A stretch of 64,000 nucleotides of DNA from Methanobacteriota archaeon (GTDB lineage: Archaea; Undinarchaeota; Undinarchaeia; Undinarchaeales; Undinarchaeaceae): the NCBI GenBank assembly GCA_002687935.1, contig NZBN01000006.1:15790-79789 (forward strand), in the 5' to 3' direction. Positions 18,916 to 34,473 of this stretch are shown here, piece after piece. The notes beneath the pieces were generated by a model. It searched no databases. It had not been told where the DNA came from and saw only the letters and a list, made by a program, of their open reading frames with translations. Position 1 is the stretch's first letter. Each line of letters opens with the position of its first letter. The position numbers and the translations under genes are program-made.

Positions 18916-18930
18916 ACCTACCCACAATAT

Positions 18931-19400
18931 TTGCATAGGAAGTAAGGGTATAAATACCTTACTGGTTTTTCCAGACCCACCCACCCCTTTGTTTCCAGTG
19001 GAACAGCCAGTTGGTGGGGCGGTGTTTTTTGTTTTAAGCCCGATTAGACCGCTTTTAGTGGTTTTGTAGTGTTTTTGTCTTGTTTTTATCTTATTAAAAA
19101 GTAGTTTAGTGGTCTTTTTTGTTTTATTTTTTGTTTCATGGGGTGTTTTGGTGTTGTTTCTTGTTTTTGGGTTCTTTTCTTCCCTTTCCAAAGGAAATTG
19201 GGGGTTTTGTTGTGATTTTCCAGTGGAAGTTGGGGTTTTTTGTTTGGTTATATTATATATATTTATTAACTATATAGATAATAAATAAATAAATAAATAA
19301 AACCGAAAGACCACAAACAAACAACAAAAAAAGGAAAATAAGATAGAAAAAAGGAAAACACACATAAAAATAAAAAAAAGTTCTATATGAAATAAAGGGG
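18931..19400. promoter_or_regulatory. Replication origin oriC with ORB elements and DUE
   Basis: ORB on minus strand 18983-19004 (GTTCCACTGGAAACAAAGGGGT); plus-strand ORB-like boxes 19186-19204 (TTCCAAAGGAAATTGGGGG) and 19218-19235 (TTCCAGTGGAAGTTGGGG); degenerate boxes 18931-18949 and 19380-19400; near-pure AT stretch ~19248-19302; directly upstream of cdc6-DP1-DP2. Confidence 0.9.
19248..19302. repeat. AT-rich unwinding element with (TAAA)n microsatellite
   Basis: TATATTATATATATTTATTAACTATATAGATAATAAATAAATAAATAAATAAAA read directly. Confidence 0.8.
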
Positions 19401-19430
19401 ACTGAGACCTAAAAAACCATAAACAAACAA

Positions 19431-30394: not shown

Positions 30395-31147
30395 TTATAT
30401 CTTTTTCAACCACTCGCCAAAGTCAATTATTCCATGCTCAAATCCCTCAATTGCAATCGGTGTTATTGAAATTTTTCTCTCATCATGTAAAGTATAAATA
30501 TCTGTTCCTGGCTCTTCCGTCGGTTCTATTACCCCCCCAATAACATAAACACTGTCCTCAACTTCTTTCAAGAGTGGAGTAACATATTCTTCCCCAAGCC
30601 TCGTAACTTCAATTCCCTTCGGTTCTCCAATCGGAACATTAACATTAAGCATTTTAACATCTCCTGGCAGTCCCTTTTCAATAATCCCAGAAACGAGCTT
30701 CTTCACAATTTTCTGAGCTTCCTCAAATAAATGATTCCCCTCCATATTATGCGCTTCCTCCGGTGTCGCTTCAATACTCACTGCAATCGAAGGAACTCCC
30801 AAATTCGCCGCTTCAAACGCGGCGCCACAGGTCCCTGAACGCATCAATGCATGTATCCCCAAATTCGCACCAATATTTATTCCTGAAACCACAAGATCAA
30901 CATCTTTCACAAGCTTCGTCATTCCTATAAAAACACAGTCTACTGGCACACCGTCTACAGAAAAATGATTATCATCTTTCTTATGGACTCTGACAGGACT
31001 TCCAAGTGTAAATCCTCTCCCTGTAGCACTCTTCTGGCTCGAAGGCGCAACAACAACAACCTCTCCGAGCTCTGACATAGCCTCTTCAAGTGCCTTAATT
31101 CCCGGCGCATCTATCCCGTCATCATTTGTAACCAATATTTTCTTCAT
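30395..31147 (-). CDS. surE: 5'/3'-nucleotidase SurE
   Basis: ILVTNDDGI, VVAPSSQKSATG, VVSGINIGANLG and SGTCGAA; start placed at ATG 31147. Confidence 0.96.
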   Translation of the reverse strand: MKKILVTNDDGIDAPGIKALEEAMSELGEVVVVAPSSQKSATGRGFTLGSPVRVHKKDDNHFSVDGVPVDCVFIGMTKLVKDVDLVVSGINIGANLGIHALMRSGTCGAAFEAANLGVPSIAVSIEATPEEAHNMEGNHLFEEAQKIVKKLVSGIIEKGLPGDVKMLNVNVPIGEPKGIEVTRLGEEYVTPLLKEVEDSVYVIGGVIEPTEEPGTDIYTLHDERKISITPIAIEGFEHGIIDFGEWLKKI

Positions 31148-31182
31148 AATCGACCTAGTTTCCGCTTCTATTAACACTTTGC

Positions 31183-31255
31183 TCTCACATCTTTGTGAGG
31201 ATTAAACGACCTTTCCTCAGAAAAGTCGGTCGATTCAGCCTCAGCATAGCGGTTT
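31183..31255. repeat. ~72-bp dispersed repeat, copy A
   Basis: TCTCACA-tctt-TGTGAG...TTAA...CGACCTTTCC...AAAGTC.GT...TTCA...CAGCATAGCG.TTT; aligns by eye with 34127-34198. Confidence 0.75.
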
Positions 31256-31801
31256 GCAGAGAAAATCATCAAAAACCTATAAATCGAAAACCAATAGCCT
31301 GCGCCCATCTCTCACCTTTCACCCTTCTCCTCAAATTTCAGCCATTTCCTCAAGCTTCCTCTCACATTTCCAATTTCCTATATTATTCTCCATATCTCAC
31401 TACCTAAAAATCCAAAAACATCAATCTATGTCTCACATTTACACCTTTTACACCTATATTTCCTCCTCACAGCTCACACAGACAGCAGATCCATTCTCAA
31501 AACACTCAAAATCTCCAAACATCAAAATAAAAGCGAAAAAACATCTCTCACATTCGAGACAATTCCCTTGGAGGGCCCACCTCTAAAAACGCCTCAAAGC
31601 TCCTGAAAATCCGGCTCTCTAGAAGTTTCCTTCAAATTCCAATAAAAATCTACAATTTTACACGAAATCCCTCAAAATTATCCGTCATATATGTAAACAG
31701 GACATAAGCTACCGATTTACTTAAAATATTAATACGTCACCTTACATGTCACCTTACATAATATTCCTAATATATTTATACTATAAACCGCTATGCTTAA
31801 G

Positions 31802-32408
31802 CATGGGAATATTCGACTTCATCAAGCCAAAAAAGAAGAAATCCGTAAAGAAAGCGTCAAGTAAAGGGAAGACCCGTAAACCCACGGGTCAGAAGCGTCT
31901 CCAGACAAAGGCGACACAAAACTCCCTACAGACTCACCAGATACCGAAAAAAAGAGCAAATATAGTCGTAATCGACCCAAAAATAGAAGCAAAAACCGAA
32001 ATAGAAGACCCACTTATCTCAATTTCTCGGCAACTCACAAAAATCCAGGACGCTCTCGAAAAAAGCCACACCACTATACAAACCGGCATGCAGAGCCTCA
32101 GAGACGATCATCACACAATCATAGAACGGCAGGTTACGCCCGATAATGTGGCAGAAGCTTTCGAAAACCACAAGCGAGAACTCGAAACTGAGAAAACAAA
32201 CATAGAAACTGAGCTCGATATACTCGAAATTGATCAGAAAATACTTGATTCTCTCAAGGAAAAAAAGCTCCGCAGCATAACGGTTTCTGAAGAATTAAAC
32301 CTCTCCCGGCAGTACACGGCCTCAAGACTCTCTCACTTAATAGATTCAGGCTTTGTAAAGCGCACGAAGCGCGGCAGAAGTGTATACTACTCGCTAATTA
32401 CTTCGTAA
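31802..32408 (+). CDS. Protein with amphipathic N-terminus, basic linker, coiled coil and C-terminal winged HTH
   Basis: MGIFDFIK..., heptad region, then DQKILDSLKEKKLRSITVSEELNLSRQYTASRLSHLIDSGFVKRTKRGRSVYY (ArsR/MarR-like wHTH). Start placed at ATG 31802 after TATA-like 31771-31780. Confidence 0.8.
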
Positions 32409-32445
32409 AATCTTCTAAAAACAAGGCTAAGCCTCACAAATAGGC

Positions 32446-32559
32446 CTAGACTCCCATCTTACGCTTTCTGTGGGCTCTCTTCCTTCGTCTAATCTTCTTT
32501 TTGACCCACTTCCAGCGCTGCCTACCCTTTTTCTTCCATTTTCTTGGCTTGCTCTTCAT
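32446..32559 (-). CDS. rpl41e: Ribosomal protein eL41 (L41e, also called eS32); absent from the ORF track
   Basis: Manual translation [37 protein letters not shown] matches the archaeal pattern [14 protein letters not shown]; GGAGAG SD upstream. Confidence 0.9.
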
Positions 32560-32685
32560 AGATGCTCTCCTATCCTTATGCTCGCTTATATCTTTTTGTA
32601 TTTTTCAAATCTTCCATATAATATACCTTCAAAACATACTATTTAATCCACATTTTTCAAACAGTATCTTCTCAGAACCCTAAAA

Positions 32686-33198
32686 TTATCTCTCACGTTT
32701 TCCTTCCTCAACTATGGCGCTTGCTCTCGCTTTTGCGGTTTCAACAATACTCTCATACTCTCTCGCAAGATGCCCAAAGAACTTTGAAAACTGAGTACTT
32801 GGCCTTATAATATTTTGGTAATGCTTCTGCGTCGATTTGGAGTGATGGAAGCGCCGCCTCTCGGTTTTCACCATTCCGACTCGCCTCAACCTTGGTAATA
32901 TCACATTATAAAATGTCGCCTTCGAAAAATTATTATCCCTTAGAAATGCGCCGACCTGCTCACCCTCTAACTCAAGCTCTTCAAGAAGAAGCGCCATAAA
33001 TGCTTTGGAAACTTCATAATATTTCGCTTGATACTGGTCTGGAAAAACAATCTGCAATATCTGCTCCATCTCAAGCCGGACATTCTGACCGTACTTCCAC
33101 TGATCTCGGAGCTTTCTAATGTCAGACAGCCAGAGAGCTTCCTTACTTGGTATTCCCCGCGAAGCAGGCTGCATACCACTATGATGTTTTTCTGCCAT
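32686..33198 (-). CDS. Conserved archaeal winged-helix-like protein
   Basis: NNFSKATFYNVILPRLRRVGMVKTERR reads as a recognition helix plus wing; GGAGG SD. Confidence 0.7.
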   Translation of the reverse strand: MAEKHHSGMQPASRGIPSKEALWLSDIRKLRDQWKYGQNVRLEMEQILQIVFPDQYQAKYYEVSKAFMALLLEELELEGEQVGAFLRDNNFSKATFYNVILPRLRRVGMVKTERRRFHHSKSTQKHYQNIIRPSTQFSKFFGHLAREYESIVETAKARASAIVEEGKRER

Positions 33199-33396
33199 AG
33201 TTCCTCCTAATGCCTTGGACTATTTAACTTTAACCAAATTCGGCTTCTAAAAAACCAGCGGTCTATTATAATGGTGTGCTGCTGGAAATCTCAGTGCTGG
33301 AGGCTTGCCCAGGCGCTTGAAGTTCCAAAAAAGCGCCTAAAACAGAGTTTTTAACAAAAATATAGGGCTCCCAGACCCAATAAAGCGAAAAAATCT

Positions 33397-33417
33397 ATAA
33401 CACCATAATGGTGTTAT
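33397..33417. promoter_or_regulatory. 21-bp palindrome ATAACACCAT-A-ATGGTGTTAT (operator-like)
   Basis: Perfect 10-bp arms with a 1-bp spacer; half-site ATAATGGTGT recurs near 33268. Confidence 0.55.
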
Positions 33418-33767
33418 TCTGCTTCTCCTTCAGAACCTTCAACAACACTCTCTACTGGAAGCATTCTCTTCGGAATTCTCCTAGTCAGCAGTATCTCAAA
33501 CTCATCAGCCAGGTCCTTACCGTGATCTGTCAGCTCAACAAACTTAGTCCTTCCCTCTTTATTAAAGGTGACTAAGCCGAGCTCCTCCATCTTCATAAGA
33601 AGTTTTACAGTGTGAGCATAGGTGCAGTCTATCTCTTTTGCGAGCGCAAGAGCATAAGGCTTCTCACCCGAGCCAATACTGACAAGAAGCCTTGCCGGCT
33701 TCGGCCGCAGAAAAAGATTCTCCAGCGTCGCTTGATGCTGGTTTTCCTCGAGTGTTTCTGTTCCCAT
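33414..33767 (-). CDS. MarR-like winged-helix transcription regulator
   Basis: LFLRPKPARLLV...YALALAKEIDCTYAHTVKLLMKMEELGLVTFNKEGRTKFVELTDHG. Confidence 0.88.
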   Translation of the reverse strand: MGTETLEENQHQATLENLFLRPKPARLLVSIGSGEKPYALALAKEIDCTYAHTVKLLMKMEELGLVTFNKEGRTKFVELTDHGKDLADEFEILLTRRIPKRMLPVESVVEGSEGEAE

Positions 33768-34126
33768 GTGAGGATTTAAGTTTCGGTTCCTATTATACTT
33801 TATGCATTTTCAGAATATACTTTTCAAACACTATATTAAAGAAATCATAATTAAAAAATAGATTTTCAAATAAAACCTGAGTCCGAGAAACGAAAGTTTC
33901 GGGAAAACCAGTAGCTGTAGAGCAAGTAAAAAACAGCGTGCATATACTTCCTATATACATCGAAAAGCCAAATGTGAGACATAAGTCAAGCAGTTTATGT
34001 GTTGAGTCGAAGAAGCTGGAGAGCTCTGAAGCCCGGCGCAGCGAGAGTCCAGCAAAATCAGAAGCACGAAATGCTTTGTGAGAGAAGAATCGAAAAATAT
34101 AGCTTCCAAAAGCTCTGACAGAGGAA

Positions 34127-34198
34127 TCTCACAAAAATGTGAGACTTAACCCGACCTTTTCCAAGAAAGTCAGTTTTTCAAACGCAGCATAGCGATTT
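34127..34198. repeat. ~72-bp dispersed repeat, copy B
   Basis: TCTCACA-aaaa-TGTGAGA...TTAA...CGACCTTTTCC...AAAGTCAGT...TTCA...CAGCATAGCGATTT; same orientation as copy A. Confidence 0.75.
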
Positions 34199-34215: not shown

Positions 34216-34473
34216 CTACTCAGCTTCATAAAGATGCCTCCAAGCCGGCATCTTCCTCAAATGTTGATTGACCACTTCTTGAGCTTCCGTAGTTCCTATA
34301 TCATCCCTACTGACAGCAAAATCTACCATCCCCTTCTTTATTTCCTCAAAACTATTCAAATTTCCGTCTCCATCTGTACAAAAATCACAGTATGGATTGC
34401 CCGCAAAGCCGCCACCGTGGTTCTTTTCGCTATGCATCGGCCTGTTACAAGATTCACAGGGATTTCCTTCCAT
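34216..34473 (-). CDS. Putative zinc-ribbon domain protein
   Basis: CESCNRPM...YCDFCTDGDG...MPAWR pattern of the stand-alone CxxC..CxxC zinc-ribbon family. Confidence 0.8.
   Translation of the reverse strand: MEGNPCESCNRPMHSEKNHGGGFAGNPYCDFCTDGDGNLNSFEEIKKGMVDFAVSRDDIGTTEAQEVVNQHLRKMPAWRHLYEAE

Follow-up and report, generated by a model that had tools for sequence, protein, structure and literature searches.

Introduction

The repeats of the TubR/tubC and ParR/parC systems, of omega of pSM19035, of AspA of pNOB8, and of SegB of Sulfolobus lie upstream of the gene for their own binding protein, run in one orientation, are regularly phased, and are also autoregulatory. TubR and AspA are winged helices, and for many centromere-binding proteins autoregulation is a by-product. 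Each of these systems has a small DNA-binding protein (PMC5120986, PMC8682754), which is paired with cognate repeats. A pairing of the same kind is predicted here for a cluster of three winged-helix genes, wH1, P2, and P3, that lies with two long non-coding flanks in a window of 64,000 nucleotides (the whole stretch of DNA that was analyzed) from a marine archaeon of the Undinarchaeota, the genome of which (G000) comprises 11 contigs and 666,542 bp. Whereas the centromere systems encode a motor (ParA, ParM, or TubZ) and phase their repeats regularly, the module described here has no linked motor, and its sites are irregularly spaced.

RocS, RacA, and Noc are further systems of the kind represented by RicO of S. 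aureus, in which a DNA-binding domain is combined with a coiled coil and a short terminal peptide. RicO itself joins a coiled coil and a membrane helix to its DNA-binding domain, and nine ricS sites lie in a region of ~700 kb flanking oriC (bioRxiv 10.64898/2026.03.06.710092). The module resembles RicO/ricS in its combination of DNA-binding domain, coiled coil, and short terminal peptide, in its origin-proximal sites, and in having no adjacent motor gene. However, RicO is bacterial and carries its membrane helix at the C terminus, the reverse of the domain order of wH1, and the 18-bp ricS sites are spread over ~700 kb, whereas the sites of the module all lie in one 3-kb locus. RicO has a membrane helix, but membrane binding by wH1 is unsupported by a hydrophobic-moment test.

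A further comparison is offered by the autoregulated winged-helix regulators of archaea (ArsR/SmtB, MarR, Lrs14/AbfR, and multi-site regulators of the Ss-LrpB type). Like the module, these have small winged helix-turn-helix (wHTH) proteins and a repeated short word 5' of the regulated gene, and some of their sites lie on or beside the TATA box of their own gene, as may be the case in the module. Repeated TACATA sites have been described for EarA (PMC10665913). The module differs in that its arrays lie 110-690 bp from the start codon, are strictly polar and irregular, and are clustered nowhere else in the genome. It also packs three regulators and four or more motifs into a single conserved island, no target outside that island is visible, and wH1 carries an N-terminal hydrophobic/poly-Lys tip and a long coiled coil.

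With slightly more confidence than doubt, we read the locus as a conserved module in which three winged-helix proteins would be accompanied by their own cis sites. The arrays would be cognate docking sites, most likely for wH1, and the whole would form a self-regulating nucleoprotein island 12-25 kb from oriC.

CTCACA words form polar arrays in both flanks

The features on which this reading depends are as follows (window coordinates).

31148-31802, no strand: non-coding flank A, 655 bp
31803-32408, plus strand: wH1
32686-33198, minus strand: P2
33414-33767, minus strand: P3
33768-34215, no strand: non-coding flank B, 448 bp (33768-34126, the portion before the right composite element, is assigned to the minus strand)
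31360-31552, plus strand: left polar array of five CTCACA words (31361, 31432, 31466, 31473, 31547), which are conservation islands in the genus alignment
33973-33978 and 34077-34082, minus strand: right-flank CTCACA words aimed at P3
32428-32441, plus strand: single high-scoring CTCACA site TAAGCCTCACAAAT between the wH1 and eL41 stop codons
31360 and 31431: decamer TCTCACATTT, with TCTCACATTC at 31546 and the complement at 33970 and 34135 (genome search)

The wH1 gene is convergent with P3 and P2, so that one flank lies upstream of wH1 and the other upstream of P3. The word that recurs in the flanks is asymmetric, ~13 bp long, and built on the core CTCACA (consensus wAAcT-CTCACA-ww). A preliminary description of this DNA had reported decamer copies in both flanks, and they were found where it placed them; four of the genome's five exact copies lie at the locus. 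Although CTCACAWW has 93 matches in the genome, clusters of at least 3 per 600 bp occur in the two flanks only. Of 258 sites scored across the genome by a matrix trained only on the sites of other genomes, the top 30 include 8 from the locus, and the TAAGCCTCACAAAT site ranks third.

All five words of the left array aim at wH1 and lie 255-442 bp 5' of its ATG, and the spacing within arrays is irregular (7-120 bp). This polarity is general: across 21 flanks of 12 genomes, 80 words read in the sense direction, toward the downstream gene (wH1 or P3), versus 8 in the antisense direction, and the exceptions lie mostly at the distal ends of the flanks. With one genome per genus, the numbers are 52 and 5. 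The related genomes compared are not independent, so counts across them overstate significance.

The locus and its arrays are conserved across the order

The preliminary description had named unlinked genes in relatives and a background frequency of the motif among the findings that would refute it; both points were checked, and neither refutes it. Wherever a genome of the order holds the three genes, they are linked. Eleven other genomes of the order share the arrangement in which wH1 faces P2 and P3; in all of these P2 and P3 are neighbors, with wH1 beside them. The long gaps recur as well, with 300-810 bp upstream of wH1 and 285-660 bp upstream of P3. At the locus the motif greatly exceeds its background frequency, whereas elsewhere it does not, both in this genome and in its relatives: 10 of the 38 CTCACAWW matches in genome G009, and 11 of 35 in G006, fall in the two flanks.

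DNA similarity of the flanks is gone between genera, yet the same CTCACA word fills them, and TCTCACA is by far the commonest 7-mer that they share. Conservation is a matter of motif islands with free spacers, and across genera of short words only. Within the genus, the right flank is 92-93% identical, like the neighboring coding DNA. The flanking synteny (SerRS, aminopeptidase) is conserved too, and in six genomes, drawn from three families, orc1 is 12-25 kb away from the module. Arrays generally hold 3-7 copies 110-690 bp upstream of wH1 and, within the order, are also found upstream of P3. The words are inherited together with the genes, cluster at this one locus, and keep their polarity.

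The array travels with wH1 beyond the order

Full-length wH1 homologues with the same N terminus are encoded in three further families of the phylum (genomes G014, G015, and G016), each with 3-7 sense-oriented CTCACA words 240-540 bp upstream of the wH1 start. Neither P2 nor P3 was detected beside wH1 in these three genomes, where the convergent neighbors are negative as P2 relatives by hhalign, and no other CTCACA cluster appears among the matches listed for G014 and G015. Because CTCACA and wH1 are inherited together where P2 and P3 are not seen, the word is most likely read by wH1. Only one array is seen in these families, upstream of wH1, and a loop between two flanks is therefore not obligate.

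An exhaustive profile search among 1.8 billion representatives returned 102 relatives of wH1, many of which keep the N-terminal M-G-h-h-x-h-h pattern and the basic tract. One distant wH1-like gene outside the phylum, P0079, has six copies of AAAAAGTGAGAG upstream of or inside the gene and a seventh in a neighboring spacer, all in one orientation; the complement of AAAAAGTGAGAG contains CTCTCAC, and KSERS peptide repeats are encoded by the copies within the gene. Words of the type CCTTTACA, like those at the wH1 promoter of G000, lie upstream in the P0079 locus. Given CTCACA-type arrays in three further families and at P0079, the array travels with the wH1 family. At a distance of 1.1 kb from P0079 is an AF_0843-family gene that can be aligned with P2 (hhalign E 4e-5, probability 70%), and the association of wH1 with P2 may be ancient. 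Orc1 is not encoded within 10 kb of P0079.

In assembly GCA_964652335.1 (L069/L070), a AAAAAGTGAGAG array enters the coding region of a distant wH1-like gene (L069:2501-3292) and gives rise to KSERS repeats in a disordered linker; here the DNA word, rather than the KSERS peptide, may be the conserved entity. A dense array of TTACGTAA / TTGACATGT lies directly 3' of the same gene (L069:3293-3461).

The loci of distant P2 homologues outside the order (G025, G030) hold no CTCACA arrays, and no CTCACA occurs in the spacer that separates the partial wH1-like and P3-like pair of G027. The long gap upstream of P0096, a distant wH1 homologue, likewise holds no array; by eye, it contains an apparent tRNA gene instead. 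This apparent tRNA gene (L066:1020-1125) carries an insert, and a partial direct copy lies 100 bp upstream. Overall, the earlier proposal that the repeats are binding sites for proteins of the cluster, which stays a prediction, is well supported by the comparative evidence.

Other motifs lie at the promoters and in composite elements

Besides CTCACA, the promoters carry at least three motifs that occur rarely or not at all outside the locus.

31183-31255, no strand: left composite element, with the palindrome CTCACA-N4-TGTGAG (31184-31199), a middle inverted repeat, and motif 2 GCATAGCGGTTT (31244-31255)
34127-34198, no strand: right composite element, with the palindrome CTCACA-N4-TGTGAG (34128-34143) and the motif 2 variant GCATAGCGATTT (34187-34198)
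31287-31298, plus strand: motif 2 copy AAAACCAATAGC
33904-33915: motif 2 copy in the right flank
31736-31796, plus strand: wH1 core promoter region, with tandem 12-mers GTCACCTTACAT twice (31736-31759), a TATA-like TTTATA (31775-31780), and motif 2 AAACCGCTATGC (31785-31796)
33399-33415: motif 4 palindrome AACACCAT-A-ATGGTGTT, perfect (8+1+8), overlapping the P3 stop codon, with a T run after it

Both flanks had been described as carrying the same ~72-bp element. Two copies are indeed present as a direct repeat, ~74-78% identical to each other, but rather than being an independent unit, the element combines CTCACA and AAACCGnTAGC-type motifs. No further copy was found elsewhere in the genome with nhmmer. 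The palindrome CTCACA-N4-TGTGAG occurs twice in the genome, at 31184 and 34128, and its stems are kept in G001 and G002, where the loop varies. A composite of CTCACA, ~45 nt, and GCTATCGGTTT is found in both flanks of genus g4, inverted there between the flanks. The left element lies 36 bp upstream of the surE ATG. On the minus strand (31148-31235), the 14 nt directly 5' of the surE start could base-pair with a 14-nt stretch of the left 72-bp element (86% complementarity); as this would enclose the two hairpins, surE may have a structured leader.

Motif 2 (AAACCGnTAGC type) has ~21 loose matches in the genome, 5-6 of which fall in the locus, and the copy AAACCGCTATGC directly precedes the wH1 ATG. 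A hairpin at ~33885-33905 adjoins a motif 2 copy; its stem is GAAAC/GTTTC in G000 and G002 versus ACTAAA/TTTAGT in G001. TATA-like boxes, assigned by eye from the sequence, lie 25-35 bp before the start codons of wH1 and P3. Conserved words flank the TATA-like boxes of wH1 and P2, and the main array lies far upstream. The wH1 core promoter is crowded in all lineages by words of the ATGTnAA type, the central base of which varies by lineage, and ATGTAAG/CCTTACAT is also among the words of the locus.

The motif 4 palindrome is the sole genome match to the half-site palindrome pattern searched. Since ACACCAT-type half-sites recur at the P2 promoter and in the first P2 codons, where they are conserved across the order, the palindrome may be both terminator and operator. 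G-depletion of the flanks was not consistent across genomes.

Three winged-helix proteins of different types

The proteins wH1, P2, and P3 all have a winged-helix fold. wH1 has weak family matches to TrmB/HTH_24 and ArsR/Lrs14. It begins with a hydrophobic tip (a short helix) and a poly-Lys tract, continues through two long helices, and ends in an ArsR/Lrs14-like winged helix; residues 7-69 form a disordered, Lys-rich linker, and residues 70-151 form the two long helices. The winged helix retrieves ArsR/SmtB structures with a Foldseek E of 3e-4. AspA, an archaeal centromere protein, is matched by the wH1 profile at E 7e-5 (~1e-4), no better than ArsR proteins are.

The N-terminal M-G-h-h-x-h-h pattern, followed by a basic or poly-Lys tract, is kept across the family including distant relatives. 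AlphaFold 2 (AF2) gives the N terminus a 4-residue helix at low confidence, and the helical hydrophobic moment of this peptide is not above that of shuffled sequences in most members. The N terminus also resembles a PIP-like LFDFL, and the score of a predicted complex with PCNA (0.13) speaks neither for nor against docking. The recognition helix of wH1 differs between orders (SRQY... versus SRTW...).

The AF2 model of P2 (pLDDT 81) shows an extended winged helix in which both the wing and the C-terminal helix are long. Structurally it comes closest to TFIIE-alpha/TFE-alpha, with Z 8.8-10 across 100-120 residues that take in the wing and the C-terminal helix, although Fur, PadR, and MarR domains score nearly as well, with winged-helix matches at Z 8-10. 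P2 thus resembles TFE-alpha and TFIIE-alpha in its extended winged helix, long wing, and C-terminal helix. TFE-alpha, however, has a zinc ribbon and a TFIIE_alpha profile, whereas P2 has no Pfam TFIIE_alpha match and contains no cysteines, and consequently no zinc ribbon. Identity with TFE-alpha was rejected for these reasons and because a canonical TFE-alpha gene lies elsewhere in the genome (G000:C10:37945-38190).

No Pfam match was found for P2 in a Pfam copy that lacked the AF_0843 model (PF27297). P2 aligns with an AF_0843-annotated protein over 94 columns (hhalign E 4e-5, probability 70%) with an Atlas feature score of 0.91, and is probably a distant relative of Pfam AF_0843 (PF27297). 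Residues 13-24 of P2 (33127-33162, minus strand) form an invariant peptide, SRG(I/V)PSKE(S/A)LW, in an otherwise disordered, low-confidence N-terminal region; it looks like a candidate docking peptide for some partner. In G002, the open frame of P2 is longer (197 aa). P3 is a small winged helix of the MarR/HTH_27 type (HTH_27 E 1e-5).

Genomic setting

The remaining parts of the locus and its immediate neighbors are as follows.

30395-31147, minus strand: surE
32446-32559, minus strand: eL41
33199-33413, no strand (minus strand as a motif-bearing part): P3-P2 spacer, 215 bp
34216-34473, minus strand: Zn-ribbon gene

The preliminary description had placed eL41 between three different wHTH genes, which holds, except that wH1 starts one base later than given (31803, not 31802). 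Its view of two unusually long flanks is borne out in part. Compared with a median gap of ~52 bp between open reading frames (ORFs), 655 and 448 bp are long, but a rough count of ORF gaps finds 21 of at least 400 bp, so flanks of this length are not unique.

The eL41 gene is genuine (E 3e-8 to archaeal L41e chains). It has been seen at this position in this genus only, plus a partial match in G011, and is a passenger here. The eL41-P2 spacer (32560-32685) is replaced in G002 (L026:7087-7352), with 19.5% identity over the aligned part; in G001, identity is 91%.

The distance to oriC was confirmed at 12-15 kb. Canonical origin recognition box (ORB) sequences lie at 18916-19430, adjoining orc1 (orc1 and ORB together span 17.7-19.4 kb); each box, at 18.9-19.4 kb, reads TTTCCAGTGGAA and then a G run. 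As had been noted before, no ParA, integrase, or transposase gene is seen among the ORFs and in the family scans of 29-36.5 kb; no ATPase appeared there, and the two AAA_31 ATPases of the genome sit on other contigs (C2 and C7). The ParA-type Walker ATPase of the ParABS, SegAB, and AspA-ParBA systems is therefore lacking in 29-36.5 kb. ORFs and family scans likewise show no Rep, Orc, or MCM gene linked to the locus. The cumulative GC skew does not turn at the locus, and no AT-rich unwinding block stands out there.

Discussion

A module protein, most likely wH1, would dock on the CTCACA arrays as monomers or head-to-tail units. The motifs that hug the promoters (ATGTnAA at wH1 and ACACCAT-N-ATGGTGT at P2), together with AAACCGnTAGC in both flanks, would be operators for mutual control of the three proteins, and the outcome would be a self-contained, cross-regulated three-gene nucleoprotein island. 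Both the assignment of proteins to motifs and the view that the output is the module's own regulation are conclusions that we infer.

Several observations weigh against this interpretation. For an archaeal operator or activator site, the arrays are unusually distant from the wH1 core promoter. The recognition helix of wH1 varies between orders while CTCACA is constant and the proximal ATGTnAA word varies; because the proximal word changes and CTCACA does not, the reader of CTCACA may be another factor, and wH1 may recognize the proximal word instead. Three regulators without a visible outside target are odd in a 0.67-Mb genome, and the single high-scoring sites scattered elsewhere in the genome may be real targets. 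The right flank, moreover, is conserved within the genus like coding DNA, beyond the need of motif islands.

The arrays could instead be an origin-proximal landmark, centromere-like or tethering, to which we attach a minor but real share of our confidence. wH1, with its coiled coil and winged helix, would then hold the chromosome at the membrane or at a partner via its N-terminal tip and poly-Lys tract, and autoregulation would be a by-product. The site cluster is unique in the genome, the module keeps to 12-25 kb from orc1 in the six genomes of three families, and the wH1 architecture (M-G-h-h-x-h-h, basic tract, long helices, wHTH) persists in distant relatives. There are also the parallels with RicO of S. 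aureus and the AspA match at E ~1e-4, the latter no better than that of ArsR proteins. Because the arrays lie far from promoters, are strictly polar with free spacing, are unclustered elsewhere, and stay at this distance from orc1, there is room for a structural role like that of RicO/ricS, and a centromere-like or tethering role is possible, though speculative. On the other hand, no ParA-type gene is linked, and the amphipathicity of the N-terminal peptide does not exceed that of shuffles in most members. The distance to oriC is not an independent signal, since the surrounding synteny (SerRS, aminopeptidase) is conserved in general, and P0079 has no Orc1 gene within 10 kb. The sites, finally, occupy one 3-kb locus and are not spread over the origin domain like ricS and parS. 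A related and equally tentative proposal is that wH1 would represent a multi-phylum archaeal family (hydrophobic/polybasic tip, coiled coil, winged helix), each member of which would mark one locus via a polar CTCTCAC-type array by its own gene. The complex would then serve as a motor-less centromere or anchor of the origin-proximal chromosome in small archaea without linked ParA or SegA.

It is rather improbable that the flanks act at the RNA level, as long leaders or separate non-coding RNAs in which CUCACA would be an RNA motif, even though this would account for both polarity and irregular spacing. The strict polarity relative to the downstream gene and the 92-93% identity of the right flank within the genus fit such an element, as do the hairpin at ~33885-33905, which keeps its structure with a wholly different stem in G001, and modest folding z-scores (-1.9 to -4.6; the long folds of the right flank give -1.9 and -2.6). 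However, the locus has no Rfam match at gathering score or E 5 and no tRNA by ARAGORN, and a catalogued RNA was rejected because both searches were empty there. RNAalifold on six copies of the 72-bp element supports the palindrome only, with no compensatory pair. Sense-strand runs of at least five T lie between arrays and genes in most flanks, and by eye the alignment shows no conserved TATA-like box within or upstream of the left array, whereas such boxes stand 25-35 bp before the wH1 and P3 starts; across genera, too, only short words are conserved. In view of the T runs, the missing conserved TATA-like box upstream of the left array, and the palindrome-only RNAalifold result, a long leader RNA is unlikely, while the identity of the right flank and the hairpin preserved despite its changed stem still leave room for an RNA component. 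Coding potential of the small ORFs in the right flank was rejected, as indels break them in G001 and G002. Less probable still is a secondary origin or a remnant of an iteron-type replicon, with a winged-helix initiator, direct-repeat iterons, and an inverted-repeat operator. Direct-repeat arrays and a palindrome of the same half-site beside winged-helix genes do recall iteron plasmids, and some archaeal origins use winged-helix initiators (WhiP of Sulfolobus oriC3). The CTCACA word, however, is unlike the ORB boxes of this genome, the spacing is irregular (7-120 bp), and the locus shows neither a turn in cumulative GC skew, nor a linked Rep, Orc, or MCM gene, nor an outstanding AT-rich block. 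A canonical Orc1 origin was rejected because the canonical ORB boxes lie elsewhere, beside orc1 and 12 kb away. We give the least credence to an integrated or decayed mobile element bounded by att-like direct repeats. The 72-bp direct repeat does bracket a 2.9-kb segment of small genes, but the segment occupies the same place across the order, with wH1 and the array present across the phylum, and it holds eL41. Its repeats are only ~74-78% alike, no integrase is seen, and the composite element is inverted between flanks in another genus; synteny effectively refutes a mobile origin. Searches of PHROGs and PADLOC gave generic wHTH matches only, which gives no viral or defence identity to the proteins.

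Returning to the module of three winged-helix proteins and their own sites, its interest lies in how little is known about chromosome organization and segregation in DPANN archaea and in how few DPANN regulators have known sites. In the module, a protein family is matched throughout the phylum with a defined DNA word that is strictly oriented, near the origin, and clustered at one locus per genome, and this pairing is directly testable with synthetic DNA and recombinant protein, with no need for culture. If the module does nothing but regulate itself, a genome of 0.67 Mb would be devoting a remarkably intricate circuit of three regulators to that end; if the product is instead the complex as such, RicO and other bacterial origin tethers would have a counterpart in the archaea.

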